Positions 3,951 to 38,438 of a stretch of 38,438 bases of DNA are shown here, in pieces; the first letter of the stretch is position 1; each line of letters opens with the position of its first letter. The DNA is taken from IMG/VR virus record IMGVR_UViG_2648501437_000025. The stretch is one strand, 5' to 3'. The notes under the pieces were generated by a model, which saw nothing but the letters and a program-made list of their open reading frames with translations, did not search any database and had not been told where the DNA came from. The position numbers and the translations under genes were made by a program. Source of the stretch: a virus (lineage: Duplodnaviria > Heunggongvirae > Uroviricota > Caudoviricetes).

Positions 3951-4343
3951 CTAGAGCGCGCGATATGGAATTTGAAGATTAAGCTGGAACCAGCCATTCT
4001 TTTCGCCAACGGTTATTGAGGAAACAGCCTGGTAACTGAGACGGTCGTCATCCTGAAACTCAAACAGTTCCCGCAATTTATCGGCTGTCTCAGTAATGAG
4101 TTTTGAACCAGAACCTGCGGGGACAAATAACTGAATAATGATTATCCCCGTGCGATAAACAACCGGCCCCGCGCCAATTTCATTAACTCCAGCCTGCCCG
4201 GGAATATTACTTAACCGCGCCCAGATTAACTTACCGGAAGGATCGAACGTTGGCCCGTTCGGATACAATACGTCTTTTCCATTAATAACCGTCTGTGCCG
4301 TCATTCTGGAAATGACCGTATTTCTGATTTCAGTAAACGTCAT
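3951..4343 (-). CDS. Tail completion / tail terminator-like protein
   Basis: 130-aa ORF immediately upstream of the major tail gene; assignment by gene order. Confidence 0.4.
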   Translation of the reverse strand: MTFTEIRNTVISRMTAQTVINGKDVLYPNGPTFDPSGKLIWARLSNIPGQAGVNEIGAGPVVYRTGIIIIQLFVPAGSGSKLITETADKLRELFEFQDDDRLSYQAVSSITVGEKNGWFQLNLQIPYRAL

Positions 4344-4720
4344 TTGTAAGCCTGTAAAACACCATGAAAAGCGTTGGCATACACGCCAGTTGGCGCTTGT
4401 TGTGAATGACCGTTTTCAAGAGCCTCTGCATAAGGAAGGTTATTCTGGATATAAATAATTCCGTAATTTGCAGCTTTCGAAATAACCCCGATCCCACGCT
4501 GAACCGCAATCGTACCGTTCGGATCCACGTTATCAGATATACCAAAATCGGGATGCTGTAACGACACCATGTTGTTATTTCTGAAACGCCCGGTATCAAC
4601 CGGAGCAGCAATATCGATAGCAGTAAGAATCTGAATAGCGATGTAGCGAATTTTCAGCCCCACATCTTCCTCAATCATCCCGGCAAATATTGACGGTTCG
4701 ATATCCCATGCCTTTGCCAT
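4340..4720 (-). CDS. Head-tail joining / minor tail protein
   Basis: 126-aa ORF, stop/start overlap with neighbours in the structural operon. Confidence 0.4.
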   Translation of the reverse strand: MAKAWDIEPSIFAGMIEEDVGLKIRYIAIQILTAIDIAAPVDTGRFRNNNMVSLQHPDFGISDNVDPNGTIAVQRGIGVISKAANYGIIYIQNNLPYAEALENGHSQQAPTGVYANAFHGVLQAYK

Positions 4721-5107
4721 TTACGCTCTCCTTAACTGGATTGAGTAAACTGATGCGGAAGGATCTACACTCGCTGTAATTACCTCGTATCGTTGCAACT
4801 GCCTTGATACAGGATCATAAATCTCAATAATATGGCCGACAGCGGGTTTATCCGTAACCTCGCATACCAGAGCTGTTAATTTAAGGTCACCATGCAAAAT
4901 ATTAATCCCATCAATTCTGCCCAGCTTATAACGCGTCAACACGCCTCGCCCGGTATAGGTTGCTGTGGATTCGCCGCCAGTTTCCGTCACAGGATCCCAG
5001 TTCCGGTGCGTAACGTAAGAACCAGAAAAATCACTCACGGCGTCTGCTAAATCCTCATCAAAAGCAGCGGCAACCTCTGACTGAATCTCTTCACGAAGCC
5101 CCATCAT
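4721..5107 (-). CDS. Head-tail adaptor / head closure protein
   Basis: 128-aa ORF, tightly packed with flanking genes; assignment by gene order. Confidence 0.4.
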   Translation of the reverse strand: MMGLREEIQSEVAAAFDEDLADAVSDFSGSYVTHRNWDPVTETGGESTATYTGRGVLTRYKLGRIDGINILHGDLKLTALVCEVTDKPAVGHIIEIYDPVSRQLQRYEVITASVDPSASVYSIQLRRA

Positions 5108-5499
5108 CCCCCCCTCACAACCCTGACTTGTGAGCGACTAAGTCCGTACGGTTTCAGCAGTGCTATCGCAAGCTGTAAATCGGGTTCAAGCAATGCAGTG
5201 CTGTTTGCTGGCAATTCAGCAAATGATTTCGATACACTGACCCCGTCAGCCGACACGGTTTTACTGATAACAACGCCAGAATCATTTTTCTGCTGAAACA
5301 ACTTACCGACAGAGGCAATTCTGGCTGCATATGCTCCCGCAAGTTTTACCTCTTCCGGAATACGGGATGGGTTAATTTTCAGGCCGAAGCCATTAAGCCA
5401 GGCATTAGCCATTAAAACAGCTTTATTTTTAGCGTTCTCACTCGTCCAGGCGTTCCCAAACGCATTATCAACGTCATCACAGGTCACGTAAGTGATCAT
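5104..5499 (-). CDS. Head-tail connector protein (gp6-like)
   Basis: 131-aa ORF downstream of the capsid gene; N-terminal region resembles gp6-type connector proteins from memory. Confidence 0.45.
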   Translation of the reverse strand: MITYVTCDDVDNAFGNAWTSENAKNKAVLMANAWLNGFGLKINPSRIPEEVKLAGAYAARIASVGKLFQQKNDSGVVISKTVSADGVSVSKSFAELPANSTALLEPDLQLAIALLKPYGLSRSQVRVVRGG

Positions 5500-24727: not shown

Positions 24728-25087
24728 TCAGCCTCCTTTGATGCCTGTGTTTACAACCAGGCAGGCTTCCTTGAGTACCCAGTCAATAGCGTCTTTCCAT
24801 GCTCCGGTTTCAACTGGCGGATTCTCACGCCGTACCTGTTCATAAAAGCGCACAGCTTTAACCAGCCCTTCTGATGACACCGGGGCTGGCGGGGCCGTGA
24901 ATAACGCCTGAATTTCATAGTTCGGTCTGTCGTTACAATCTTCTTTTGTCGGGGCATATTTCCAGTCACCAAACCACGACTTACCCTGAGAGTCCGTAAC
25001 GCCTTTTTTCACGTAGCGATACCGCCATGCAACTGGTTTTGCCTGCCCTGCCGTTTCATGCCCTTCCTGATAATTAATCTCACTCAT
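24728..25087 (-). CDS. Hypothetical nin-region protein (119 aa)
   Basis: ORF with ATGA overlap to the upstream small ORF. Confidence 0.45.
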   Translation of the reverse strand: MSEINYQEGHETAGQAKPVAWRYRYVKKGVTDSQGKSWFGDWKYAPTKEDCNDRPNYEIQALFTAPPAPVSSEGLVKAVRFYEQVRRENPPVETGAWKDAIDWVLKEACLVVNTGIKGG

Positions 25088-25260
25088 TCATCGCCCCACT
25101 CATCACAATATGCTTCGACCGGAGTTTTTCCTGCTTCATAATCATCACGCCATGCTTCAGCATCAGCGGCACTTCCACCGCGTAACTCTGCATAATCCAT
25201 TAACAGTTCATGCCATTCTTCAAAACTGGCGTTATATTTAGTTGAACCAAAATCAGCCAT
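25084..25260 (-). CDS. Small acidic protein (58 aa)
   Basis: MADFGSTKYNASFEEWHELLMDYAELRGGSAADAEAWRDDYEAGKTPVEAYCDEWGDE from my translation; stop overlaps the next start; below the track cutoff. Confidence 0.4.
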   Translation of the reverse strand: MADFGSTKYNASFEEWHELLMDYAELRGGSAADAEAWRDDYEAGKTPVEAYCDEWGDE

Positions 25261-25435
25261 TTTGCTCTTCCTCTTCGTCTTTTATTTCGTGATATGAGTA
25301 ATTGCAGTAGTTAAAGAAAATTTCTTTTGCTTCGTCCTTTATTTCATCTGGTGTCGCATCATCATCCACTTCGAATACATCTTCAAAATCTCCACCAGCT
25401 ATTCCCGTTTCAATAATTATTTTGAACTTTCGCAT
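25253..25435 (-). CDS. Small highly acidic protein (60 aa)
   Basis: Asp/Glu-rich (FEVDDDATPDEIKDEAKE...KDEEEEQNG); a GC hairpin sits between a GGAGG element and its ATG. Confidence 0.45.
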   Translation of the reverse strand: MRKFKIIIETGIAGGDFEDVFEVDDDATPDEIKDEAKEIFFNYCNYSYHEIKDEEEEQNG

Positions 25436-25528
25436 TTCATTACCGCCCTTTCGGGCGGCCTCCTGATGTTCTGAGGGTGCAGAAATCCCTCCGGTTAAGG
25501 ATTAAATTTTTAACACTACTAAATTTAA

Positions 25529-25927
25529 TTATTCAGTTCTGGATTTTGTCGCTCTGCGTATCCGCGCTTTCGCGTTACGCTCAATCTGAATTAACTTTTC
25601 TATATTTTTCCGCCTTTCCTGTTCCTCCTGGCGCAATAGCCTTACATCATCTGCCAGTCTGGTTTCTCTTTTCGCCACTGAGAGCATCCAGTCAAACGGC
25701 TCCACAACTGCACCGCAGTTTTTACAGCGGACCTGACGCTCTTTTTCGTCAACCCGGACAGAAGCGTGATGGCAGTATGGTCTTTCCGATGGCTCATAAA
25801 GAAAATTAACCTGATTACGTGGGTCATCCTCTTTTACCGGAAATAAAACAATATTACTTAACTCATCTTCTGGATTTATTTCCACGTCACTCTCCTTTGA
25901 TGCGAATGCCAGCGACGCGTGGCACAT
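25529..25927 (-). CDS. Zinc-ribbon + coiled-coil protein (paralog B)
   Basis: YCHH...CKNCG...EPF then coiled-coil ERNAKARIRRA; start placed at ATG 25927 (track start 25966 is TTG). Confidence 0.5.
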   Translation of the reverse strand: MCHASLAFASKESDVEINPEDELSNIVLFPVKEDDPRNQVNFLYEPSERPYCHHASVRVDEKERQVRCKNCGAVVEPFDWMLSVAKRETRLADDVRLLRQEEQERRKNIEKLIQIERNAKARIRRATKSRTE

Positions 25928-26309
25928 TAACTTCCACAATGCGCACAGTTGGTTTGTACATCTCAATTGCTGTCAGCCAGTCAGCGCCAGTCATGCGCTT
26001 TTCTGCATCGCCATTAGTCCACTTAACCGGTACACCAATAGCCTTCATCGCGATTTCTATTTCCCCGGCAATGGCGCTTTTTCCACAACCAGTAAAACCA
26101 GAAACAACGACAAGAACTTCGCCTTTGGCTGGTTTTATTTCCCGTGCTTCCAGTTCTGCAATGCGCTTCTCTGCGGCTTCCAGCTCAACACGCAGCTTCC
26201 CTACCGTTAGCGCAATTTCCTCGTTCTCCTGATCGCGGCGTTTTATGTATTGCTGGTTTCTTTCCAGTTCATCCAGTAATGCCAGCACAACCTGAGGTGT
26301 GACCTTCAT
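25887..26309 (-). CDS. Hypothetical protein with P-loop-like GFTGCGKS segment
   Basis: Coiled-coil N-terminus, then VVVSGFTGCGKSAIAG; start uncertain (ATG 26309, or TTG 26426 per the track). Confidence 0.4.
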   Translation of the reverse strand: MKVTPQVVLALLDELERNQQYIKRRDQENEEIALTVGKLRVELEAAEKRIAELEAREIKPAKGEVLVVVSGFTGCGKSAIAGEIEIAMKAIGVPVKWTNGDAEKRMTGADWLTAIEMYKPTVRIVEVNVPRVAGIRIKGE

Positions 26310-26382
26310 ACGAAATGCCAGCAATTTTTGTGGTGTGGCTGCTATTTTTATTGCTTCTGCCGCCCCACGCAGTGCCTGATAG

Positions 26383-27126
26383 TCAATCTTGCTCACTGGT
26401 TGCCTCCTGGCAAAGTTGGGCGACAATATCGCGATATTTATTCAGCTCCCGCAGCGCGGCACATACTCGCTCCCATTTCCGGATATCACTTTTCGCCCGA
26501 CGCAGTTCGCGGTTTGCCTGTCGCAGCGATGGCAGAACCAGATTATCCACTCGCTTCTCAAGCGGCTGCACAATGCCCGCCACAGTTTCTGTTTTAATAT
26601 CTTCCTGTGTTGCAGCTTCCTGTACTGGTAACGCAACACATGCAGGCTGAGGAAAGGCTTTACCATCAGTTTCCGCTACCGATGCCGCTTTCGGCTCTGC
26701 TGGTAAATTACCGCCCGGCATGCAGTAACGAAATTTACCGTTCTGATTAACACGAATCAGACGACCTTTGCTGATTGCCATTGCCAGCGTTGAAGCCACT
26801 TTGCGTGATGTGGTGCCGAAAAACGTAGCCAGTTCATCCGCCGTTTGTGGGCCACGTTGTTCAATCGTCGCGGTTAAATCGCACTCTGAGATTTTCGCTA
26901 CTGTTGCCATGGTGGTTTCTTCCGGCAGCTCTGCCGGCGCTGGCTGTTCCTGCTGAACGTTGTTATCAGCCACGCGCCAGGTGTATACGCTTTTATCAAC
27001 GAAGCCAGCCTTTTTCAGTTCCCACAGCTCGTTCAGCACTTCTTCTCGACTGATATCAAGTCGCGTAGCCAGTTCTACCGACGTGGCTTTTCCCATCGCT
27101 TTCAGTGCGTCAAAAACGGTCTCCAT
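26383..27126 (-). CDS. Winged-helix DNA-binding protein (two WH-like segments)
   Basis: Repeated pattern of the [30 protein letters not shown] type; ATG 27126 with GGGAGGAAA RBS. Confidence 0.5.
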
Positions 27127-27148
27127 TAAAATTTCCTCCCGGTAAAAA

Positions 27149-27895
27149 TTACTTCTCAATACCTGGCTGACCAACATTCGGGCGCCAGCTCTCCCAGTTA
27201 AAATTCACCCAGCGCCCGCCGTTCATGGTCATGCGATCCATAATCCGCTCGCCGAGCAATGTTTTCATGGCCTCATAGTTCAGGTTTGTCAGCATCCCCA
27301 CGCTGCGCATCGACGCTGTCCGGCGATCAACAATCTGGTGCAGTACCACCTGCTCGTTTTTCGTCTCGCGCTGAATACCAATTTCATCAAGAACCAGCAG
27401 ATCAACTTCGCACAGTTCCCGCAAAAATTTTTCGCCTGACTGCCCGTCGTCATAGCTGGCGTGCAGGGCGCTCATAACATCAGCCACGGTAACCACAATC
27501 ACTGTCTGGCCATCTTTCAGCAGGCGATTCCCGATAGCCGCCGCCAGATGGTTTTTTCCGGTACCAGGTTTTCCGCTGAACGCGAAATTTGTGCATCCGG
27601 TAACCAGTTCGTCAGCGATAGATTTCGCCTGACTCAACGCGTATCGCTGGCCGTCGTTCTGCACCTGGTAATTCGCAAACGAGCATTTGCGGTGCAACGG
27701 CTGTATGCCGGAGCGATTCAGGATTTTTTCCACCCGCAACTGACGATTCTGACGGTTGATCTCCTCACAACGTTTCTGGCCTTCTGCAAGTTGCCACTCG
27801 CGCCACTCCGCCACCGTCCTGAATGGCGCGGTTACATGTGGCGGGGCCAGTCGGCGGATGCGTTCCAGAACGCCGCCTGTCGCAATATTTTTCAT
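27149..27895 (-). CDS. ydaV: DnaC-like replicative helicase loader (IstB-like AAA+ ATPase)
   Basis: Walker [16 protein letters not shown] and Walker [10 protein letters not shown]; position after the initiator-like gene. Confidence 0.9.
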
Positions 27896-27901
27896 GGTTC
27901 G

Positions 27902-28759
27902 TTACCCCCTGAAGCCTGGCGGGATCGCACTGTCCGGCAACGAGACGGTGTTAACCTGTCTGAGCAACGTCTCAGGCCGAACACCTTTCGGCGCGAACAA
28001 GCCCTGGTATTCATTGGCGATGCTATGTCGAATCACCTGCTCAGGGGTAAAACCCTGCTGGCGGAATTTTTCCAGCTCCCGTATCGCCCCGTTAGCGCCC
28101 TGCTCCGTTCGAATCGGTTTACGCAATGCATGGCGAAATTCAACCCACTCACGCCAAAGCGAGACAGAAATCCAGTTCGGCAAAGCAATATCCAGAGGGT
28201 CAAACTTTTTGACACCTCGATTCCCCCGGGGGGGATTTAGGGGGGGATCTGTTTTTAGATCTTTATCTGTATCTTTATTAGTTGCCTTTGTGTTGACATC
28301 ATGTTCAAACACCACTTCAACATCTGTTTGAACACCTGTTAAATTTCTCTCTTGTTTTGTTTGAACATCTGCTTCCTTTCTGCTTCTTCTGGCCTGAACA
28401 GATGCTTTTCCTGCGGCTGATTTTTTGGTTAATTTTTCCCTGACTGATGCCAGATCTTCCTCAATCCGAAGATGCACCCATTCCTCGCCGTTATCGCAAA
28501 AAAACTCCCGCAAGGATGGTTCAACATCAGCCCATCGCTCGTTAGTCAGACGGGCAATTTTTGCCAGCCTGTTTTTGGGTATTGGCTTTCCTGTTTGCCA
28601 GTAATTGAACATCAGCAACAAATACGCACCGTGCTCCTCTGCTGACAAATGCATGGTGTCAGCCAGGTAATCAGCTATGTACAGTTGCATGTATGGTAAT
28701 GCGGCCATAATTGCCCCGTATGATGCTGCCCGGTTGCTTAGAATAAGCACAAACAGCAT
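27902..28759 (-). CDS. ydaU: Replication initiation-associated protein (YdaU-like, DUF1376)
   Basis: N-terminal YIADYLADTMHLSAEEHGAYLLLMFNYWQTG pattern; 285 aa; located upstream of the DnaC-like gene. Confidence 0.7.
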   Translation of the reverse strand: MLFVLILSNRAASYGAIMAALPYMQLYIADYLADTMHLSAEEHGAYLLLMFNYWQTGKPIPKNRLAKIARLTNERWADVEPSLREFFCDNGEEWVHLRIEEDLASVREKLTKKSAAGKASVQARRSRKEADVQTKQERNLTGVQTDVEVVFEHDVNTKATNKDTDKDLKTDPPLNPPRGNRGVKKFDPLDIALPNWISVSLWREWVEFRHALRKPIRTEQGANGAIRELEKFRQQGFTPEQVIRHSIANEYQGLFAPKGVRPETLLRQVNTVSLPDSAIPPGFRG

Positions 28760-28771
28760 GAAAACTTTTGC

Positions 28772-29194
28772 TTAATGAACAATGACAGAATCGTCGGAAG
28801 ACCCGCCACCGCTGAAATATGCTTTACGGTAAACGGCCTGGACTGCATCATCATGCGCATCAATTGCCGTACTCAACGCTTCCTGCGCCGCCAGTAATGC
28901 ACGGCGTTCCAGGGTATCGAAGATGCAGAGTCGGTGACGCAGCTCGCGCGGAAGAATTGCCAGAACCGCAGGGATCAGTTTCTGAATTTTTTCCCTTTGC
29001 GCTTTCGTTTCACCTTTCAACCAACGGTGATAGATATTCTGCTGATTGTTCCAGTCCTTGCCTGGTACCAGGGGCAATTCGCCGCCCCCCTGGCGCAGAT
29101 ATTCTTCAGTAATTGCGTTAGCAACCCACGCCTGCCCTTTTTCGGCTGCTAGGGCTAACAACACTGATTCGATGTGCTCATGCCTGATTTTCAT
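28772..29194 (-). CDS. ydaT: YdaT-like protein
   Basis: 140-aa protein MKIRHEHIESVLLALAAEKGQAWVANAITEEY... closely resembles Rac YdaT from memory; start overlaps the Cro-like stop (ATGA). Confidence 0.7.
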   Translation of the reverse strand: MKIRHEHIESVLLALAAEKGQAWVANAITEEYLRQGGGELPLVPGKDWNNQQNIYHRWLKGETKAQREKIQKLIPAVLAILPRELRHRLCIFDTLERRALLAAQEALSTAIDAHDDAVQAVYRKAYFSGGGSSDDSVIVH

Positions 29195-29433
29195 GAATCA
29201 ACCGCTCCTATGCTGTTTTCGCTATGCTTACCGTCTGGGGGGAATACATCGTCAAGTCCACAATGAGCACCAAGCCGATTAAGGGTGGAAACAATTTTTC
29301 TGCACTCCTCTAGCCCAGGGGTACGAAAATTTGCTTCGTAATTTGCCAGTCGGCTTTGTATCCACCCTAGCTGAACAGCGAGTTGTCTTTGAGACAGACC
29401 AAGTTGTTTTCGATATGTTGAAATTTTGTTCAT
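29191..29433 (-). CDS. Cro-like XRE-family HTH regulator
   Basis: HTH segment LGLSQRQLAVQLGWIQSRLANYE; first gene of the leftward operon, GGAGG RBS; divergent from the repressor gene. Confidence 0.7.
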   Translation of the reverse strand: MNKISTYRKQLGLSQRQLAVQLGWIQSRLANYEANFRTPGLEECRKIVSTLNRLGAHCGLDDVFPPDGKHSENSIGAVDS

Positions 29434-29529
29434 TAAAAACCTCCGACGACAATTTTAAACACACCTTGTGTTTTACGGTCAAGCTATTTTGTGTTTTATA
29501 TAAATCACGATTCGTGATACAAGGACGAA
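29434..29529. promoter_or_regulatory. Divergent promoter/operator region of the immunity switch
   Basis: Two copies of TTGTGTTT(TA), a 15-nt perfect palindrome ATCACGA-T-TCGTGAT just upstream of the repressor RBS, and a minus-strand TTGACC/17 nt/TTTAAA promoter-like element. Confidence 0.55.
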
Positions 29530-29949
29530 ATGGAAAAAGAAAACGAAAAAATTGCCGCTAGTAGGCTCAATGACAAAATTGCAATGCGTCTTAAAGAGCG
29601 CAGGCAGAAGCTTGGTTTATCTCAAGGAAAACTTGCTGAAATCTGCGGATGGACGCAATCGCGTATAGGTAACTATGAGGCGGGCAGCAGAAATGTTGGA
29701 GTGCATGATGCTGTCGTCCTGGGAAAGGCGCTGGGCATATCTCCTCCTGAGCTCCTCTTTGGGGAAAAAGACTCTTCTGAATTGTGGTTAAATGAATCCC
29801 AACGAAAACTTCTTGAGTTGTTTAACCAGCTACCGGGCTCAGAACAACAACGAATGATTGAGCTATTTGAAGTCCGGCTAAAAGAAATCGACGAGTATGT
29901 AGAAAAATATTTGAGGGGCAGGCTTAAAGATACCCCCCCACCGGAGTAA
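29530..29949 (+). CDS. Prophage repressor (CI-like XRE HTH, no peptidase domain)
   Basis: HTH segment LGLSQGKLAEICGWTQSRIGNYEAG; divergent from the Cro-like gene; followed by its own terminator. Confidence 0.7.
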   Translation: MEKENEKIAASRLNDKIAMRLKERRQKLGLSQGKLAEICGWTQSRIGNYEAGSRNVGVHDAVVLGKALGISPPELLFGEKDSSELWLNESQRKLLELFNQLPGSEQQRMIELFEVRLKEIDEYVEKYLRGRLKDTPPPE

Positions 29950-29970
29950 TGATCTTGCTATCACAGTAAT

Positions 29971-29994
29971 ATGCCAATCAGCCCGCTATCAGCG
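29971..29994 (+). terminator. Intrinsic terminator after the repressor gene
   Basis: gcccgc-tatca-gcgggc hairpin followed by T7. Confidence 0.6.
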
Positions 29995-30041
29995 GGCTTT
30001 TTTTGTACCATCATCATATGACACGCCACCATAAAAACACA

Positions 30042-30076
30042 TTTTGTGTTGACATACAAAAACCCTTTGTGTTTAA
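30042..30076 (+). promoter_or_regulatory. PL-like early-left promoter with operator repeats
   Basis: TTGACA, 17-nt spacer, TTTAAT, overlapped by two TTTGTGTT repeats also present in the 29434-29529 region. Confidence 0.5.
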
Positions 30077-30251
30077 TAAGCATATCCAAACAACGCCCCA
30101 CCGGAGAACGGCAGGACAATACCTCGAGTTATCCAGCCACTGAACAGGGCTAAGTAGCCAGCCTGAGGCATACGAACATGACGGCAGTTGTTGATTGATA
30201 CAAAGCGCAGTAGATAAAACGTTCCGCCACCCGGCGTTAAGGGGAAAAAAG

Positions 30252-30386
30252 ATGGTGCATTACGAAGTAGTTCAGTATTTGATGGATTGTTGCGGTATCA
30301 CTTACAGCCAGGCTGTGCAGGCTTTACGTAGCAACGACTGGGATCTCTGGCAAGCAGAAGCCTCTATCCGCAACAACAAGATGTGA
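30252..30386 (+). CDS. ydaG: YdaG-like small protein (44 aa)
   Basis: MVHYEVVQYLMDCCGITYSQAVQALRSNDWDLWQAEASIRNNKM; ATG at 30252 with AAGGGG RBS; matches Rac gene order. Confidence 0.55.
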   Translation: MVHYEVVQYLMDCCGITYSQAVQALRSNDWDLWQAEASIRNNKM

Positions 30387-30396
30387 GGTGCGAAAA

Positions 30397-30552
30397 ATGC
30401 AAAAAATCGACCTCGGCAATAACGAATCCATGGTGTGCGGCGTGTTCCCCAACCAGGATGGAACGTTCACCGCCATGACTTATACCAAAAGCAAAACATT
30501 TAAAACCGAAACTGGTGCGCGCCGATGGTTGGAGAAGCACACAGTAAGCTAA
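30397..30552 (+). CDS. ydaF: YdaF-like small protein (51 aa)
   Basis: My translation: MQKIDLGNNESMVCGVFPNQDGTFTAMTYTKSKTFKTETGARRWLEKHTVS; RBS GAGGTG; below the track cutoff. Confidence 0.5.
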   Translation: MQKIDLGNNESMVCGVFPNQDGTFTAMTYTKSKTFKTETGARRWLEKHTVS

Positions 30553-31004
30553 CGATTAAAACGTCTACTCCTGCTGTTCCAGAATAACTTCATAAAATGG
30601 GAGTATTTTTCGGTGACGAGATAATAAGAACAGTTTGCGCTATCACTCTGATGTTGAATGATGCCCTTCCGTTCTAATTTTTTCATAACCGGGTTACGGC
30701 AAGGAGAAGTGATAATAAGATTTCCTGTTTTAAGGAAATCTTTAAATACAGCGATTTCTTTCTCAGATAAACGAAGCAACACTCGTTGCTCTGGTAGTAA
30801 TGAATAATGCTTTTGAATATGTGCTCGCAATCTTGAGAAGGAAATGGCGACCACGAAAGAAAAGGCAAAAACGATAATCTGAAAGAGCCAAGGTATTTCA
30901 GTATAAGCATTGAATGCGACAGTAAACTCTTTCGGTATCAGCCAGAGAGTGAGACCAAAAATGATAATCGTATACATAAGTCTTTCGATGTGGCTCGTTA
31001 GCAA
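30549..31004 (-). CDS. sieB: Superinfection exclusion protein SieB-like (membrane)
   Basis: Two N-terminal hydrophobic segments, opposite orientation to the flanking early genes as in Rac. Confidence 0.55.
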   Translation of the reverse strand: MLTSHIERLMYTIIIFGLTLWLIPKEFTVAFNAYTEIPWLFQIIVFAFSFVVAISFSRLRAHIQKHYSLLPEQRVLLRLSEKEIAVFKDFLKTGNLIITSPCRNPVMKKLERKGIIQHQSDSANCSYYLVTEKYSHFMKLFWNSRSRRFNR

Positions 31005-31468
31005 AAAGTTTCAACAATGGAGTAAATACATCCAACATATCAATAACTCTCAACTGTAAGGGTATTGAAATGTTAACACAAGCTCTCGCTGTAGGGGTAT
31101 AGCCGAGACCACCGAAGCCCGGAGGTGGTGAAATAAAACTGGGCGCAACACGAAGGCGCATTTCCGATATCCATAAAGAGTCGGTCTTGTCTGTTAAATT
31201 TAAATGGTGGGAGTGCGCCTCCGGTTGTAAATAACGACATTGCTGTGTGTAGTCTTGGCGGCATCAGTTTTTTCTTGAAGTTCGGCTGATGTCCGCCCTT
31301 TTTAAAGTGAATTTTGTGATGCGGTGAATGCGGCTAAGCGCACGCGGAACAGTTAAAAGCATCAGTGTTATGGGTGGATTATCCGGCGTTAATTGTTAAC
31401 TGGTTAACGTCACCTGGAGGCACCAGGCACCGCATCAACAAAGTTCATTTGTGAAAATGGAGATAATT

Positions 31469-31690
31469 ATGATTGCTCATCACTTCGGAACTGATGAAAT
31501 ACCTCGTCAGTGTGTGACTCCTGGTGATTATGTTCTTCATAACGGCCGGACATATATTGCCTCGGCAAACAATATTAAAAAGCGAAAGCTTTATATTCGT
31601 AACCTGACCACAAAAACATGCATTACTGACTGCATGATTAAAGTCTTCCTCGGTCGTGATGGTTTACCTGTAAAGGCGGAGTCATGGTGA
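31469..31690 (+). CDS. kilR: KilR cell-division inhibitor
   Basis: [46 protein letters not shown]... near-identical to Rac KilR as I remember it; GGAG RBS. Confidence 0.8.
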
Positions 31691-31860
31691 TGACTAAGAA
31701 AATAAAATGTGCTTACCACCTTTGCGATAAAGAAGTTAAAGAAAGCAAAAGCATTAAAAGACCACTTCATTTCATGCGTGGAGTTATCCCAACGACGGAA
31801 ATGAAAAAATATTGTAGTGAAATATGTGCCGAAAAAGACCAGATGGCACACGAACTTTAA
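31684..31860 (+). CDS. ydaE: YdaE-like small Cys-rich (zinc-binding) protein
   Basis: My translation: [58 protein letters not shown]; overlaps the kilR stop. Confidence 0.55.
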
Positions 31861-31934
31861 TTAACTGACTATGCGAAACTGAATTTATGCCAGCAATGGC
31901 AGGGATTCGCTCAACCTTAATTAAGGAGAAAAAC

Positions 31935-32210
31935 ATGATTACCAGTTATGAAGCCACTGTTGTAACTACTGATGACATTGTTCACGAAGTTAATCTGGAA
32001 GGAAAGCGTATTGGCTACGTGATTAAAACAGAAAATAAAGAAACCCCATTCACTGTGGTTGATATCGACGGTCCATCAGGCAACGTTAAAACACTTCACG
32101 AAGGTGTCAAAAAAATGTGCCTGGTGCATACCGGAAAGAATCTGCCCGCAGAAAAAAAAGCCGAATTTCTGGCAACTCTAATTGCAATGAAATTAAAAGG
32201 TGAAATCTGA
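31935..32210 (+). CDS. racC: RacC-like protein
   Basis: MITSYEATVVTTDDIVHEVNLEGKRIGYVIKTENKETPF...; AAGGAG RBS; directly upstream of recE as in Rac. Confidence 0.65.
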   Translation: MITSYEATVVTTDDIVHEVNLEGKRIGYVIKTENKETPFTVVDIDGPSGNVKTLHEGVKKMCLVHTGKNLPAEKKAEFLATLIAMKLKGEI

Positions 32211-32311
32211 AAGAAATAGCCTGCGTATGGCGCAGGCTATGAACAGTGTGTATCCGGCAAGATCATTCACTGAACAAAACGAATTTTAATCTGAGTTGAG
32301 GTTAAAAAACA

Positions 32312-35300
32312 ATGAGCACAAAACCACTCTTCCTGTTACGGAAAGCGAAAAAATCATCCGGTGAACCTGACGTCGTCCTGTGGGCAAGCAACGATTTTGA
32401 ATCGACCTGTGCCACTCTGGACTACCTGATCGTTAAGTCAGGTAAAAAACTGAGCAGCTATTTTAAAGCTGTTGCCACGAATTTTCCTGTCGTTAATGAC
32501 CTGCCCGCTGAAGGTGAGATCGATTTTACCTGGAGTGAACGCTATCAACTCAGCAAAGACTCCATGACATGGGAACTAAAACCGGGAGCAGCACCAGACA
32601 ACGCTCACTATCAAGGCAATACCAACGTCAACGGCGAAGACATGACTGAGATTGAGGAGAATATGCTACTCCCAATTTCTGGCCAGGAACTGCCCATTCG
32701 TTGGCTTGCTCAACACGGCAGCGAAAAACCGGTAACGCACGTTTCACGCGACGGACTCCAGGCATTATACATTGCTCGGGCTGAAGAACTACCGGCTGTT
32801 ACTGCCCTGGCTGTTTCCCACAAAACCAGCCTGCTCGACCCGCTGGAAATTCGCGAACTCCACAAACTGGTTCGTGACACTGACAAAGTTTTCCCTAATC
32901 CTGGTAATTCAAACCTGGGACTGATAACTGCTTTTTTCGAAGCATACCTGAACGCTGACTACACCGATCGAGGACTGCTGACAAAAGAGTGGATGAAGGG
33001 TAATCGTGTTTCACACATCACTCGCACGGCTTCCGGTGCTAATGCTGGCGGCGGAAACCTCACCGATCGCGGCGAAGGTTTCGTACACGATCTGACGTCA
33101 CTGGCGCGCGACGTAGCCACTGGCGTACTGGCCCGTTCAATGGATCTGGACATCTATAACCTTCATCCGGCACACGCTAAACGCATTGAGGAAATTATCG
33201 CTGAAAATAAACCGCCCTTTTCTGTTTTCCGCGACAAATTCATCACCATGCCTGGCGGGCTGGATTATTCCCGCGCCATCGTGGTTGCGTCCGTAAAAGA
33301 AGCACCAATTGGGATCGAGGTCATCCCCGCGCACGTCACTGAATATCTGAACAAAGTACTGACTGAAACCGATCATGCCAACCCTGATCCGGAAATCGTG
33401 GATATTGCCTGCGGTCGCTCCTCTGCCCCGATGCCGCAGCGAGTAACAGAAGAAGGAAAACAGGATGATGAAGAAAAACCGCAACCATCTGGAACAACGG
33501 CAGTTGAACAGGGAGAGGCTGAAACAATGGAACCGGACGCAACTGAACATCATCAGGACACGCAGCCGCTGGATGCTCAGTCACAGGTAAATTCTGTTGA
33601 TGCGAAATATCAGGAACTGCGGGCAGAACTCCATGAAGCCCGAAAAAACATTCCATCAAAAGATCCTGTCGATGCCGATAAATTGCTTGCTGCATCACGT
33701 GGTGAATTTGTTGACGGAATTAGCGACCCGAACGATCCGAAATGGGTAAAGGGGATCCAGACTCGCGATTGTGTGTACCAGAACCAGCCAGAAACGGAAA
33801 AAACCAGCCCGGATATGAATCAACCTGAGCCAGTAGTGCAACAGGAACCGGAAATAGCCTGCAATGCCTGCGGCCAGACTGGCGGGGATAACTGCCCTGA
33901 CTGTGGTGCGGTGATGGGCGACGCAACATACCAGGAAACATTCGATGAAGAGAGTCAGGTTGAAGCTAAGGAAAATGATCCGGAGGAAATGGAAGGCGCT
34001 GAACATCCGCACAATGAGAATGCTGGCAGCGATCCGCATCGCGATTGCAGTGATGAAACTGGTGAAGCGTCAGCTCCTGTAGCAACTGAAATCATGTGGC
34101 CGTCATATTTCGAGCCTGGCCGCTATGAAAACCTCCCGAACGAGGTTTATCACTCCGCCAACGGAATAAGCAGCACGATGCTGAAGGATGCCCGTATCAG
34201 CCTGATGTATTACCATGGACGGCACATTGCCGGAACTATTCCGAACGAGGAAAGTGATGCACTGCTGCGTGGGCGGATCATTCACAGCTATGTTCTGGAA
34301 ACGGATAAATTCGCTGATGAATATGCCATTCCGGTACCGGTTCCTGAATATGTGGTTACTACTTCTAACGAACTGATCGCCATCATTAAAAAACACAATG
34401 CCAGTCTGCCAGCACTGATGACACCAGAGCAGATGAAAGAGTGGATCGAAAGCTACAACAGCACTCTTATACAGCCACTGTCTGTAAGTGCCGGGGCCGA
34501 AGAAACAGGCATCCTTTACGGTTCGCTTCCGGTGGAATTTCGGCGTATTCCTGAGGGGGAAAAACACACAGCATCAGCAATGAAAGCCTGTATTAAAGAA
34601 TACAACGCAAGCCTCCCTCCTCTGTTGAAAACCAGTGGAGCACGGGAGCAGCTTCTGGATCAAATTGAAACTGTAGCCCCAGAACTAGCAAAAAAAGAAC
34701 GTGCTAAATCTTTGCCTTACAACATCAGTGGCACAAAAGAGCAATTAACCGAAATCGCACGGCAAATTCGCCCGGAACTGGTGACTCTGGAGGACTGGCA
34801 AAAACGCCAGCAAGAAGAAAACGCCGGGAAAACGTTTATCAGTCCGGATATGTATGAACAGGCAAAAAATATTCACGCGGCACTACAAAACAGTACCGAT
34901 GCAGCAAGGTTACTCAACCACCCGGATCGCAAATCTGAAATCAGCTATTTCGGGTTTGATGAAGAAACCGGGCTGGAAATCAGGGTCCGTCCTGATATCG
35001 AAATCCGGCTGCCATACGAAAGCATTTGCGCTGACGTGAAGTCAGTCAGCCTCGGTTATGTGCGACAGGAACGACTTAAAGATCGCCTGCACCGTGAAAT
35101 TATTGAACGTGATTATCATCTCAGCGCCGCAATGTATTGCGATGTGGCAAACCTGGACAAATTTTTCTGGATCTTCGTCAACAAAGATGCTGGCTATCAC
35201 TGGGTGGCAGTCGTGGAAGCCTCGCAGGAACTCCTGGAACTTGGTCGACAGGAATATCGCCGGACGCTACGCCAGATAAACGAAGCCCTGGAGACAAACA

Positions 35301-35383
35301 ACTGGCCAGCACCGATTACCGAAAGTTATACCGACGAATTAAACGACTTTGATCTTCGTCGTCTTGAAGCACTGAGCATCTGA
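32312..35383 (+). CDS. recE: RecE-like exonuclease VIII (long form, 1023 aa)
   Basis: C-terminal part carries acidic/hydrophobic segments consistent with a PD-(D/E)XK nuclease domain of RecE type; acidic low-complexity middle region; followed by an annealing-protein gene. Confidence 0.8.
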
Positions 35384-35394
35384 GGAAGGACACA

Positions 35395-36447
35395 ATGAAC
35401 GAATTAACTCAACAAGAAAATATTAACTCTAATGTTGCGGTTTTCAGCCCTCAGTCCCTGGCTGCAATTCAGACATTTTCCCAGGTAATGGCTTCCGGCA
35501 TGGCTACTGTACCGGAACACCTCCGGGGAAATCCATCAGACTGCATGGCCATCACCATGCAGGCGATGCAGTGGCAAATGAACCCTTACGCAGTAGCTCA
35601 GAAAACTTTCGTTGTGAATGGTGTGCTCGGATATGAAGCGCAACTGGTTAATGCCGTAATCAGTACTCGTGGGCCGCTAACCGGGCGTATTGAATATGAC
35701 TGGTTCGGGCCGTGGGAAAAAATTATCGGGAAATTTGAAATCAGGAAGAGCGACAAAGGGAAAGAATATCGTGTACCTGGCTGGAAGCTGGCCGATGAAA
35801 ACGGGATCGGTGTTCGTGTCCAGGCAACACTACGCGGCGAAAGTAAACCACGCGTACTGGAATTACTTCTGGCGCAGGCCAGAACACGTAACTCAACGCT
35901 ATGGGCCGACGATCCTCGCCAGCAGCTTGCCTATCTGGCGCTGAAACGCTGGGCGCGCCTTTATTGCCCCGAAGTGATTCTTGGAGTGTACACCAGGGAC
36001 GAACTGGACGAGCCACAGGAAAAAATCATTAATCCGGTTCAGGAACATAAAAACACTTCCGCTTGCCGCGCTGAACGTGAAACAACAATTATTGAGCAGG
36101 ATGCCGGGGAAAACTGGATCGATGCTTTCCGTGAACGTATTGAGCAGGCACAAAGCACCGGGGAAACAACAGCACTTCGCCAGGAAGTGGAAGATCATAA
36201 AAATACACTTGGCGCTCTCTATACGGAACTTAAAGGAAAAGTGGTTCAGCGTCATCACCGTCTCAATGCTATTGCCCGTATCGAGAAGATGATAAATGAC
36301 CTACCTTCTTCAGGTGATCCAGAAGCAGAACAAAAATTTACTGCTCTGGAAAATACGCTGAATGCTGCCCGGCCACATCTGGGTGAATTATATGAGGCGT
36401 ATAAAACGACACTGACAGATATGAAACCAGAATATATCGGCTCCTGA
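35395..36447 (+). CDS. RecT/Redbeta-family single-strand annealing protein
   Basis: N-terminal region (AITMQAMQWQMNPYAVAQKTFVVNGVLGYEAQLVNAVI) resembles the Redbeta/RecT annealing-domain layout; paired with recE. Confidence 0.6.
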   Translation: MNELTQQENINSNVAVFSPQSLAAIQTFSQVMASGMATVPEHLRGNPSDCMAITMQAMQWQMNPYAVAQKTFVVNGVLGYEAQLVNAVISTRGPLTGRIEYDWFGPWEKIIGKFEIRKSDKGKEYRVPGWKLADENGIGVRVQATLRGESKPRVLELLLAQARTRNSTLWADDPRQQLAYLALKRWARLYCPEVILGVYTRDELDEPQEKIINPVQEHKNTSACRAERETTIIEQDAGENWIDAFRERIEQAQSTGETTALRQEVEDHKNTLGALYTELKGKVVQRHHRLNAIARIEKMINDLPSSGDPEAEQKFTALENTLNAARPHLGELYEAYKTTLTDMKPEYIGS

Positions 36448-36510
36448 TATTGACTTTGGCGGTGTAGCCTCACCGCCATCACAAAATTTTATTTTATGAG
36501 AGAAAAGACA

Positions 36511-36705
36511 ATGCGGTATGAAAAAGTCAAACCATGCCCTTTTTGTGGTTGTCTATCAGTAACGGTAAAAGCCATTTCAGGATATTACCGCGCGAAGTGT
36601 AACGGATGCGAATCCCGAACCGGCTATGGTGGAAGTGAAAAAGAAGCACTCGAACGATGGAATAAACGAACCACTGGAAGTAATAATGGAGGTGTTCATG
36701 TATAA
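36511..36705 (+). CDS. ralR: RalR (Lar) restriction-alleviation protein / type I toxin
   Basis: MRYEKVKPCPFCGCLSVTVKAISGYYRAKCNGCESRTGYGGSEKEALERWNKR... matches Rac RalR from memory. Confidence 0.75.
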   Translation: MRYEKVKPCPFCGCLSVTVKAISGYYRAKCNGCESRTGYGGSEKEALERWNKRTTGSNNGGVHV

Positions 36706-36886
36706 AATTACCGCCACTATTGAAAAGGAAGGTGGCACTCCTACTAACTGGACAAGGTACTCAAAAACAAAATTAACCAAATCAGAATGCGAAAAAATGC
36801 TCTCAGGTAAAAAAGAAGCAGGCGGTTCCAGAGAGCAGAAAGTAAAACTGATAAATTTTAATTGCGAGAAACTTCAGTCGTCGTGA
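36698..36886 (+). CDS. ydaC: YdaC-like protein
   Basis: MYKITATIEKEGGTPTNWTRYSKTKL...; ATG overlaps the ralR 3' end, preceded by GGAGG. Confidence 0.55.
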   Translation: MYKITATIEKEGGTPTNWTRYSKTKLTKSECEKMLSGKKEAGGSREQKVKLINFNCEKLQSS

Positions 36887-36985
36887 ATTGCATTGTATTC
36901 AAATTAAAACTTCATAGCTGATTATTAATAATCAACATCGGGCGTCAATTTCAGTCTAACATTGGCGCCTGCCAGAGGTGATGCG

Positions 36986-37201
36986 ATGGCACAAGTAATC
37001 TTTAATGAAGAGTGGATGGTTGAATACGGCCTGATGCTTCGCACTGGTCTGGGGGCCAGACAAATTGAAGCATACCGCCAGAACTGTTGGGTGGAAGGCT
37101 TCCACTTCAAACGAGTATCTCCTTTAGGTAAGCCAGACAGCAAACGAGGGATTATCTGGTACAACTATCCAAAGATAAATCAGTTTATCAAAGACTCATG
37201 A
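36986..37201 (+). CDS. xisR: Excisionase
   Basis: [66 protein letters not shown]; directly upstream of int with 1-nt spacing. Confidence 0.75.
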
Positions 37202-37202
37202 T

Positions 37203-38438
37203 ATGTCTAAATTACCAACAGGTGTCGAGATTAGAGGTAGATACATTCGCATCTGGTTCATGTTTCGAGGAAAACGATGTCGGGAAACATTAAAAGGCTG
37301 GGAGATTACAAACAGTAATATTAAAAAGGCCGGAAATTTAAGAGCGCTGATAGTTCATGAAATAAACTCCGGTGAATTTGAGTATTTAAGACGTTTTCCC
37401 CAGTCCAGCACTGGGGCAAAAATGGTGACAACGAGAGTCATAAAAACGTTCGGAGAGCTTTGTGATATCTGGACAAAAATTAAAGAGACAGAGTTAACAA
37501 AAAACACAATGAAGAAAACGAAATCACAATTAAAAACACTCAGAATAATAATTTGTGAAAGTACCCCGATATCACATATTCGTTATAGCGATATCTTAAA
37601 CTACCGGAATGAACTGCTGCATGGAGAAACGCTTTACCTGGATAATCCAAGATCCAACAAAAAAGGAAGAACCGTGCGCACAGTTGATAACTATATCGCC
37701 CTGCTCTGTTCGCTGTTGCGTTTTGCGTATCAGTCGGGATTTATATCAACCAAACCATTTGAAGGAGTAAAAAAATTACAGCGAAACAGAATAAAGCCTG
37801 ATCCGTTATCTAAAACAGAATTCAATGCATTAATGGAAAGTGAAAAAGGACAGAGCCAGAACTTGTGGAAATTTGCCGTTTACTCAGGACTTCGTCACGG
37901 GGAACTGGCAGCTCTGGCGTGGGAGGATGTGGATCTCGAAAAGGGAATAGTGAATGTCAGAAGAAACCTGACGATACTTGATATGTTCGGTCCCCCAAAA
38001 ACAAATGCCGGGATCCGAACAGTAACACTACTGCAGCCTGCTCTTGAAGCACTGAAGGAGCAATACAAACTGACCGGGCATCATCGCAAAAGCGAAATCA
38101 CCTTTTATCATCGGGAGTACGGCAGAACCGAAAAGCAAAAACTGCATTTTGTTTTCATGCCCAGGGTGTGTAACGGAAAACAAAAACCTTATTACTCGGT
38201 AAGCAGTTTGGGGGCAAGGTGGAATGCAGCAGTAAAACGTGCTGGTATTCGCCGCCGTAATCCGTACCATACGCGGCATACTTTTGCCTGCTGGCTGTTG
38301 ACGGCAGGAGCGAACCCGGCATTTATAGCCAGCCAAATGGGGCATGAAACTGCGCAGATGGTGTATGAAATTTACGGTATGTGGATTGATGACATGAACG
38401 ACGAACAGATAGCCATGTTGAATGCGCGGTTATCGTAG
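37203..38438 (+). CDS. intR: Tyrosine integrase (lambda Int family)
   Basis: 411-aa ORF with C-terminal catalytic region (...RHTFACWLLTAGANPAFIASQMGHETAQMVYEIYGMW...); stop codon is the last triplet of the window. Confidence 0.9.
   Translation: MSKLPTGVEIRGRYIRIWFMFRGKRCRETLKGWEITNSNIKKAGNLRALIVHEINSGEFEYLRRFPQSSTGAKMVTTRVIKTFGELCDIWTKIKETELTKNTMKKTKSQLKTLRIIICESTPISHIRYSDILNYRNELLHGETLYLDNPRSNKKGRTVRTVDNYIALLCSLLRFAYQSGFISTKPFEGVKKLQRNRIKPDPLSKTEFNALMESEKGQSQNLWKFAVYSGLRHGELAALAWEDVDLEKGIVNVRRNLTILDMFGPPKTNAGIRTVTLLQPALEALKEQYKLTGHHRKSEITFYHREYGRTEKQKLHFVFMPRVCNGKQKPYYSVSSLGARWNAAVKRAGIRRRNPYHTRHTFACWLLTAGANPAFIASQMGHETAQMVYEIYGMWIDDMNDEQIAMLNARLS

Follow-up and report, generated by a model that had tools for sequence, protein, structure and literature searches.

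What sets the recE-recT locus at 32312-36447 of the virus record IMGVR_UViG_2648501437_000025 apart from the recET genes of Escherichia coli K-12, and what does this say about how such recombination modules are built and how they work? The window, by which we mean the whole 38,438-nucleotide (nt) stretch from this member of the Caudoviricetes, had been read beforehand from its letters alone, and this original prediction described a pair composed of an unusually long RecE-like exonuclease, with an acidic linker and a CxxC...CxxC zinc-ribbon-like insert, and an annealing protein unlike K-12 RecT. The 1023-amino-acid (aa) RecE and the downstream annealing gene were found as open reading frames (ORFs) exactly where they had been placed, and matches to Pfam Exonuc_VIII, DUF3799 and RecT bore out a RecE/RecT-type pair. 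Our answer is that a Rac-family lambdoid prophage of E. coli has its early-left Rec module here, that the nuclease domain and the annealing gene were exchanged together to give a chimeric locus, and that the pair would act by a RecET mechanism; we place the probability of these three statements taken jointly at roughly 85%. The two genes and the sequence between them are as follows.

32312-35383, plus strand: recE (exodeoxyribonuclease VIII), chimeric, 1023 aa (ORF list, NCBIfam NF007259, DNA match to E. coli L73)
35384-35389, plus strand: Shine-Dalgarno-like GGAAGG, directly 3' of the recE stop and 5 nt 5' of the annealing gene start (sequence reading)
35395-36447, plus strand: gene for the RecT-family single-strand annealing protein (SSAP), 350 aa (ORF list, Pfam RecT)

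A Gifsy-1-type cassette within a Rac recE-recT locus

The features on which the chimeric structure rests are listed here.

32312-34066, plus strand: N-terminal part of RecE (aa 1-585), at about 99% identity with K-12 RecE (BLASTP)
34067-35380, plus strand: RecE-type PD-(D/E)XK nuclease domain in a long, Gifsy-1-like form, aa 586-1023 (438 aa)
about 34067-36456, plus strand: exchanged cassette of 2.4 kb with the nuclease domain and the SSAP gene, in place of 1.6 kb in K-12 Rac
36458-36477, plus strand: hairpin GGCGGTG-N6-CACCGCC just 3' of the SSAP stop, shared with K-12 downstream of recT, at the right junction

Homology to K-12 Rac, traced with blastn, ran from 30094 to 34081, broke off, and restarted at 36457, which is 10 nt past the SSAP stop. 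The left junction fell in linker-coding sequence just 5' of the nuclease domain, after "...SDETGE" (aa 585), and the right junction at the hairpin. From this break and restart, together with the sequences at the two junctions, we concluded that a 2.4-kb cassette replaces its 1.6-kb K-12 equivalent, and the alignments demonstrate that the nuclease domain and the whole annealase gene were swapped as one Gifsy-1-type cassette. The original prediction was right that RecE is unusually long (1023 aa vs 866 aa in K-12), and we found that the whole of the length difference lies inside the nuclease domain. The NCBIfam exodeoxyribonuclease VIII model NF007259 matched the protein at 1533.5 bits against a cut-off of 1269, a score derived mostly from the K-12-identical N-terminal 585 aa. 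Judged by these alignments, the window RecE combines the N-terminus of a Rac RecE with a nuclease of the Gifsy type; most of the related long RecEs in IMG/VR, whose nuclease domains share about 50-56% identity with that of the window, showed a partial match to the Rac N-terminal profile and lacked the CxxC-x7-CxxC motif.

Of 5426 complete E. coli genomes, 193 contained the cassette, 159 of them at 80% coverage or more, and 1751 contained the K-12 cassette. Annotations by the Prokaryotic Genome Annotation Pipeline (PGAP) read "recE: exodeoxyribonuclease VIII" or "PD-(D/E)XK nuclease-like domain-containing protein", followed by "RecT family recombinase", and by sequence match the exact proteins are already public in RefSeq genomes and phage records. 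The suggestion of a variant recombineering pair therefore held insofar as the nuclease domain and the SSAP both differ from those of K-12, but not as a claim to a new kind of module, since the cassette is of the known Gifsy-1 type (PMC3121763, PMC12315714). We found no description of the chimeric layout, a Rac N-terminus plus a Gifsy-type nuclease plus its cognate SSAP, in the open-access literature searched. The locus thus displays how Rec modules are constructed: the unit of exchange is the nuclease domain together with the annealase, which is neither a gene nor an operon, and its boundaries are the linker inside recE and the hairpin after recT.

Several altered or unexpectedly placed copies of the cassette were also seen. 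In E. coli E300010 (locus L007, 4016-5597), a deletion took the 3' part of recE and the 5' part of recT, leaving recE' and 'recT pseudogenes; in locus L135 (3834-5261), a deletion remnant of the cassette, the RecE N-terminus and the RecT C-terminal domain are fused in one ORF; and in locus L147 (4335-5330), another deletion remnant, an N-terminally truncated recT stands beside unrelated minus-strand genes. A 100%-identical copy of the window RecT-family protein is encoded by PP818812.1, "Actinobacillus phage vB_Apl-pPE4" (host A. pleuropneumoniae), which covers about 55% of the Rac-type early region at window positions 25001-36935 with 95% DNA identity; the host attribution of this record looks doubtful because its sequence is so similar to E. 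coli Rac.

The nuclease domain and its helical insert

Within the nuclease domain we located the following elements.

34283-34285, plus strand: His658, aligned with K-12 RecE His-652
34334-34816, plus strand: helical insert of about 150-160 aa (aa ~675-835), opposite a gap in K-12 RecE in the alignment
34994-35041, plus strand: PD...DxK catalytic motif (D895/D908/K910), aligned with K-12 RPD...DVK

The Pfam family DUF3799 (PDDEXK-like) was matched at RecE aa 836-1000 (3e-13), and a phmmer comparison of the nuclease domain with the RecE structure 3H4R (3h4r_A) in the PDB gave 3.6e-6. When the AlphaFold2 (AF2) model of the domain was searched with Foldseek, 3h4r came first (E = 1.2e-6, probability 1.00) and other PD-(D/E)XK exonucleases came next; the model has a mean predicted local distance difference test score (pLDDT) of 69.9, and its N-terminal 61 residues are of low confidence. 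The RecE catalytic signature consists of His-652 plus PD-DXK (PMC11611040). In 20 homologs, D895, D908 and K910 were invariant, and H658 was retained in at least 90% of them. By sequence and predicted fold, the domain is clearly homologous to the RecE nuclease, if at some distance.

AF2 predicted the insert to be helical (pLDDT 80-93), and comparison of its halves with hhalign revealed an internal duplication with a unit of about 46 residues (probability 96.8%, E = 2.2e-10); a third copy of the repeat was unsupported (hhalign probability 3%). A Pfam scan of the insert at E<=10 matched no family. A first impression that the repeats resemble HeH/SAP DNA-binding motifs found no credible Pfam match, and we have dropped it to the level of speculation.

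The RecT-family annealing protein

The SSAP consists of a core (aa ~1-210), a variable linker and a conserved helical C-terminal domain, and the two conserved parts were delimited as follows.

35482-36021, plus strand: RecT annealase core, aa 30-209 (Pfam PF03837; dN/dS, defined below, 0.018 vs locus L003)
36106-36444, plus strand: conserved helical C-terminal domain, aa 238-350 (~113 aa), ending DMKPEY (alignment, AF2)

The 350-aa protein matched Pfam RecT (PF03837) at 4.6e-43, with 147.5 bits against a gathering cut-off of 24 and coverage of profile positions 2-190 of 198. It fell in PHROG 561, "RecT-like ssDNA annealing protein" (1.3e-145), and is identical to a protein cluster of 855 sequences named "RecT family recombinase"; relatives that are full-length (345-370 aa) are spread throughout Enterobacterales. 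That the annealing protein does not resemble K-12 RecT, as had been suspected, was confirmed: BLASTP found no significant similarity between the two (best E = 0.36), and the window protein represents a different subfamily of Pfam RecT. Nor did it match any NCBIfam family, including the RecT equivalog NF007351 and TIGR00616, both of which are matched by K-12 RecT. A protein that matches Pfam RecT and yet misses the NCBIfam models and BLASTP is, we conclude, a member of the RecT family and not a K-12 RecT ortholog. The alignment to K-12 RecE/RecT proposed at the outset hence came out ordinary for the N-terminal part of RecE, and not for its C-terminal domain, which has a real insert, or for RecT, which is different.

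The helices of the SSAP C-terminal domain were modelled with pLDDT of ~77-88, and a Pfam scan of the domain (E<=10) matched no family. No relative with a solved structure turned up among PDB sequences, whether the query was the SSAP by itself or a 30-sequence profile. The best PDB hit of the fold search was Red-beta's N-terminal domain, or NTD (7ujl; E = 0.12, probability 0.57), which is not significant because the core of the model is of low confidence, with pLDDT of 50-60 over much of its length. Close homologs of the SSAP (proteins P0135, P0145, P0157, P0177, P0182 and P0232, and phage record MK448237.1) are named "enterohemolysin", a label that looks like a propagated misannotation given that the RecT domain is clear.

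Coupling of the nuclease insert to the SSAP C-terminal domain

Neither the insert nor the window-type C-terminal domain is present in K-12 RecE/RecT or in the RecE-RecT fusion of phiV10. A search of IMG/VR with the nuclease domain, of which the top 80 loci were used, gave 76 loci with a contig long enough to be informative, and in all 76 the insert-bearing nuclease was followed by an SSAP carrying the C-terminal domain; such top-80 lists are biased toward close relatives. In the reverse direction, starting from the C-terminal domain, an insert-bearing nuclease was present in 73 of 76 further loci (73 of 75 informative). The remaining three comprised one locus that ends at a contig edge and the two deletion remnants L135 and L147. 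We had considered L147 as a counter-example to the coupling and rejected it as such, since its truncated recT beside unrelated minus-strand genes marks it as a remnant.

The coupling was retained where the RecT core was not. In at least five loci (L008, L012, L018, L020 and L031), identity to the window is 98-100% for the nuclease and 82-85% for the C-terminal domain but only 56-58% for the RecT core; the core-swapped SSAP of L008 lies at 4320-5408. In three others (L009, L035 and L081), the RecT core could not be detected by BLASTP or by a custom hidden Markov model (HMM), yet these proteins match Pfam RecT, and the C-terminal domain is still 33-43% identical. As the C-terminal domain remained beside the nuclease when the core was exchanged, the breakpoint falls between core and C-terminal domain and not between the genes, and the alignments imply a second layer of mosaicism inside the SSAP gene, produced by recombination between these two parts. 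We found no description of an insert/C-terminal-domain coupling across RecT-core swaps in the open-access literature searched.

What holds the two together? In lambda, the cognate contact between exonuclease and annealase is made by Red-beta's C-terminal domain (PMC11611040). By analogy, exonuclease and annealase would travel together because a cognate contact is needed; for the annealase, docking would likely fall to its helical C-terminal domain, which may bind the duplicated insert of the nuclease. It is thus conceivable, at somewhat less than even odds in our judgment, that the duplicated insert and the SSAP C-terminal domain form a dedicated docking interface that is transferred as a unit. 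Two points weigh against it. The co-occurrence, suggestive of docking as it is, was seen in lists that favour close relatives, and, as adjacent genes co-inherited in related prophages, the insert and the C-terminal domain do not by their association supply independent evidence of contact. The C-terminal domain could also bind host SSB or another factor (PMC13490951).

The latter proposal, with genetic linkage alone accounting for the co-occurrence with the long nuclease, seems to us less likely than not. In its favour, the Red-beta C-terminal domain binds both the exonuclease and the SSB C-terminal tail (PMC11611040); the ETfinder paper (2026) suggests extended C-terminal helical bundles of RecT proteins as possible surfaces for SSB or unknown factors, and reports that predicted RecE contacts can be just a short element near the RecT C terminus (PMC13490951); and neighbouring genes are co-inherited by default. 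Set against this are the repeated separation of core and C-terminal domain, with the latter kept with the nuclease (core 56-58% identical or undetectable vs nuclease 59-100%), and the phiV10 protein, which covalently joins a RecE-type nuclease to a related RecT core and does without the C-terminal domain. In addition, the hosts are all Enterobacterales or Aeromonas and would have similar SSB tails, so that matching to SSB would not explain a K-12 RecT that lacks the domain.

If the docking interface is real, annealase cores would be freely swappable as long as the nuclease-matched C-terminal domain is kept, which would give the construction of new recombineering pairs a design rule. The same interface would account for the "promiscuous" combinations of nuclease and annealing protein (SAP) in lambdoid phages, for which a domain-level analysis was left open by the survey of these modules (PMC12315714). 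A coupling that is kept across core swaps offers a testable handle on partner specificity, a question raised in both PMC12315714 and PMC13490951.

Proposed function of the pair

Both ORFs are intact, and relative to locus L003, a 91%-identical copy in another prophage that we used as reference, the ratio of nonsynonymous to synonymous substitution rates (dN/dS) ranged from 0.02 to 0.15 across the parts of the cassette (0.13 for the nuclease domain and 0.15 for the SSAP C-terminal domain), i.e., purifying selection. The recET orthologs of Gifsy-1, like those of Gifsy-2, are repressed in the lysogen and, once activated, suppress recombination defects (PMC3121763). A 2025 survey treats the "Gifsy-1" class (class B), a nuclease plus a SAP with no anti-RecBCD, as a standard lambdoid Rec module (PMC12315714), and the window module has the composition that defines this class, a RecE-type nuclease and a SAP with no anti-RecBCD or SSB gene in the module. 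Given the intact ORFs, the low dN/dS, the functional Gifsy orthologs and the standard status of the class, the best-supported mechanism is that of classical RecET. The PD-DxK domain of RecE (His658, Asp895, Asp908, Lys910) would act as a Mg2+-dependent 5'->3' exonuclease on double-stranded DNA, resecting a double-strand end to leave a 3' single-stranded tail; the RecT-family protein would be loaded on this tail, coat it and anneal it to complementary single-stranded DNA. The outcome would be RecA-independent recombination serving phage replication and recombination, normally repressed in the lysogen. The alignments establish homology and the catalytic residues, and from these we infer activity, polarity and oligomeric state. 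Telling against this assignment of function are the distances involved, activity being extrapolated across ~27-32% identity to K-12 RecE (nuclease flanks) and 52% to the Gifsy type, and the models, which are moderate only (pLDDT 69.9 for the nuclease and 66.2 for the SSAP), that of the SSAP giving no significant fold match in the PDB. The pair would then be a natural, probably functional alternative RecET native to E. coli, and a candidate for recombineering.

It could be argued that the long nuclease differs from RecE in its activity, with another polarity, as an endonuclease or as a non-toroidal monomer, since only ~27-32% of residues outside the insert are identical to K-12 RecE, the Pfam family is DUF3799 and not one named for RecE, Cas4 and MGME1 nucleases are among the structural neighbours, and the model has low confidence over its first 61 residues. 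We regard this as improbable: RecE 3H4R is the best match by both sequence and fold, the RecE-specific signature of His plus PD-DxK is retained, an SSAP gene always comes next, as in RecET, and the Gifsy orthologs, which share the insert, replace RecBCD-dependent recombination genetically (PMC3121763).

Still less probable, in our view, is the idea that the cassette is what remains of a cryptic prophage, decaying and without function. K-12 Rac is defective, with recET silent unless activated, and deletion remnants of the window-type cassette do exist (L007, L135, L147); Gifsy recET is likewise repressed (PMC3121763). However, both ORFs of the window are intact and the SSAP gene has a good ribosome-binding site, the catalytic residues are invariant, dN/dS is between 0.02 and 0.15, and we found no premature stops or catalytic substitutions in the pair. 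The cassette is moreover maintained at >=80% coverage in 159 genomes and occurs in deposited phage genomes such as Rac-SA53, and the structural genes of the window form a complete set, which matches deposited E. coli phage genomes at 97.5% identity.

The N-terminal region, acidic linker and cysteine motif of RecE

Two features of the RecE N-terminal region had drawn attention to the locus.

33392-34081, plus strand: acidic P/Q-rich linker, RecE aa 361-590 (23.5% D+E vs 7.4% K+R), as in K-12
33860-33904, plus strand: CxxC-x7-CxxC motif (C517/C520/C528/C531), also in K-12 RecE

The acidic character of the middle region was thus confirmed, and a CxxC...CxxC motif is indeed present and forms a candidate zinc site; it is not an insert, and it is identical in K-12 RecE. 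Linker and motif are not distinctive of this protein either, as both lie in the part shared with K-12 RecE (BLASTP ~99%, aa 1-585) and are kept in other E. coli prophage exonucleases, so that the features singled out are those of an ordinary K-12 RecE. That the protein became a RecE variant by acquiring an acidic linker and a zinc-ribbon insert in its middle region, an idea whose merit is that the linker and the CxxC-x7-CxxC, with its four conserved cysteines, are really there, is very improbable and was refuted by the K-12 RecE alignment: aa 1-585 are ~99% identical with both features included, the DNA there is shared at 99.4% with DH1 (H5), as it is with many other strains including further members of the K-12 lineage, and the length difference lies entirely in the nuclease domain.

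The N-terminal region begins with the Pfam domain Exonuc_VIII (PF06630; aa 2-178, 6.4e-97), and a Pfam scan (E<=10) of aa 179-600 returned nothing credible; a review assigns no function to the RecE N-terminal domain (PMC11611040). Among 1.84 billion representatives clustered at 50% identity, only 67 clusters matched RecE aa 430-600, which makes this mid-region a narrowly distributed module of enterobacterial prophages. Its best-conserved element is C-x2-C-G-x3-G-G-x-C-P-D-C-G-x-V-x-G-x-x-T-Y, and the acidic flanks diverge. No CxxC pairs occur in the protein other than the two of this motif (aa 517-532). All four cysteines were invariant in the five N-terminal regions compared (the window, K-12, the long-nuclease RecE of L003 and two fusions to DEDD exonucleases) and present in nearly all full-length 50%-identity representatives covering the motif, the exceptions being short, frameshifted-looking fragments. 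No curated zinc-ribbon model in Pfam reached its threshold on RecE (Zn_ribbon_3, E = 0.29, 11 bits vs a cut-off of 27). With the CxxC pairs conserved and no such model reached, we treat the motif as a candidate zinc site only, probably a zinc knuckle or ribbon of the RecE N-terminal region. We also rejected the notion that a zinc ribbon is a universal mark of long RecE proteins, as the motif was missing from 54 of 84 proteins examined, among them the majority of the more distant long RecEs that are Gifsy-1-like. In sequence terms, it is a feature of K-12 RecE and not specific to the window variant.

The two DEDD fusions, in E. coli prophages at ompW and rspB (L004, 3663-6068; L005, 3663-6125), join the RecE N-terminal region to a DEDD 3'-5' exonuclease (Pfam Rv2179c-like, 2e-67), which takes the place of the RecE nuclease. 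They carry the Exonuc_VIII domain, the mid-region and CxxC-x7-CxxC, comparable to window 32312-34066, and are joined at the same "...ETGE" linker; no SSAP gene follows, and xis and int come next. In 2626 records, the best match to the recE-SSAP query was of only 80-90% identity, and judging from sampled hits these appear to be largely of the DEDD-fusion or a related type. DnaQ-like nucleases are known to occur in lambdoid Rec modules (PMC12315714). We saw no description of a shared RecE N-terminal platform. The CxxC-x7-CxxC may be a real zinc site in an N-terminal "platform" that prophages fuse to either RecE-type 5'->3' or DnaQ-like 3'->5' nucleases.

The Rac prophage setting

The gene order kilR-ydaE-racC-recE-recT-ralR-xisR-intR-ttcA is common to K-12 Rac and to the corresponding region of E. 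coli L73, which is 99.8% identical to the window and whose annotated recE shares 99.8% DNA identity with the window recE. Around the window pair we found kilR, ydaE and a racC-like gene upstream, and ralR/Lar, DUF1187, xisR and intR downstream. In both the L73 prophage and K-12 Rac, the attachment site at ttcA comes after intR; the window spans kilR to intR and terminates within intR, which leaves ttcA beyond it. The small ORFs beside the pair encode DUF1391, SieB, YdaE-like, RacC-like, Lar/RalR, DUF1187 and Xis proteins, and no Gam or SSB was found among them. A scan of 31000-37300 for promoters and terminators gave sites no more numerous than in shuffled sequence.

Structural genes (terminase, coat, tape-measure protein) and a Trk potassium-uptake gene occupy window positions 88-23386. 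The left 25 kb of the window are 97.5% identical to the E. coli phage genomes vB_EcoS-683R6 and vB_EcoS-666R9, and by its gene content the Rac-type prophage of the window appears full-length, unlike the 23-kb defective remnant in K-12. Upstream of recE, a small Cys-rich ORF of 58 aa (31684-31860, plus strand) is the counterpart of K-12 ydaE, a "zinc-binding protein"; it gave a sub-threshold Pfam match to Rtr1/RPAP2 (1.4e-7, 32.1 bits vs a cut-off of 33).

Comparison with known systems

The nearest system in terms of location is K-12 Rac RecE/RecT, which belongs to the same prophage family and has the same locus and gene order. K-12 RecE (866 aa) shares aa 1-585 at ~99% identity, acidic linker and cysteine motif included, as well as the nuclease fold and the His + PD-DxK signature (PDB 3H4R), and it too has a RecT-family partner directly downstream. 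Its nuclease domain, however, measures 281 aa vs 438 aa in the window, lacks the insert, and is ~27-32% identical outside it; K-12 RecT has no BLASTP similarity to the window SSAP and lacks the helical ~113-aa C-terminal domain. The K-12 genes overlap by 8 nt, whereas those of the window are separated by 11 nt that contain GGAAGG.

Salmonella Gifsy-1 RecE is the closest named relative of the nuclease, with 52% identity across 98% of the domain, insert included, and loci in IMG/VR whose nuclease domain is ~52% identical to that of the window encode a RecT with the same C-terminal domain at 44-52% identity. The Gifsy-1/Gifsy-2 module likewise pairs a nuclease with an SSAP and includes neither Gam nor SSB (PMC12315714), and the pair is genetically functional (PMC3121763); Gifsy-type RecE differs in the N-terminal region upstream of the nuclease. 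Among phages, the recE of Escherichia phage Rac-SA53 is 98.6% identical over the nuclease domain. HK225, mEp237 and Klebsiella phage ST974-OXA48phi18.2 share a long nuclease (51-52% identical) and an SSAP with the C-terminal domain (~49%), but at only ~50% identity and in other phage backbones, and Aeromonas phage pAEv1818 has a related long nuclease that is about 50% identical. We found no biochemical characterisation of the Rac-SA53, HK225, mEp237 or Klebsiella phage pairs in the open-access literature searched.

Lambda Red, formed by Red-alpha (Exo) and Red-beta, pairs a PD-(D/E)XK 5'->3' exonuclease with a Rad52-like annealase and would work in like manner, and its Red-beta C-terminal domain docks exonuclease and SSB (PMC11611040). 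The fold similarity of Exo and the Red-beta NTD to the window models is weak. Exo has PD-ExK, with Glu-85 where RecE has His (PMC11611040), and lacks a large N-terminal extension like that of the window RecE; Red-beta lies outside Pfam RecT, and the window module has no equivalent of gam. The RecE-RecT fusion of the phiV10/epsilon15 type has a RecT core 61-65% identical to that of the window SSAP and a DUF3799/RecE-type nuclease, but it is one polypeptide, its nuclease has no insert and its RecT part no window-type C-terminal domain. In phiV10 (L010, 2116-3876) it is a single protein of 586 aa, a natural "Rosetta-stone" fusion of both activities.

The products of the locus are thus members of the RecE and Pfam RecT families, and the locus would work like RecET or lambda Red. 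The basic picture of these systems is unchanged by it, as the proteins are public and the type has been characterised genetically.

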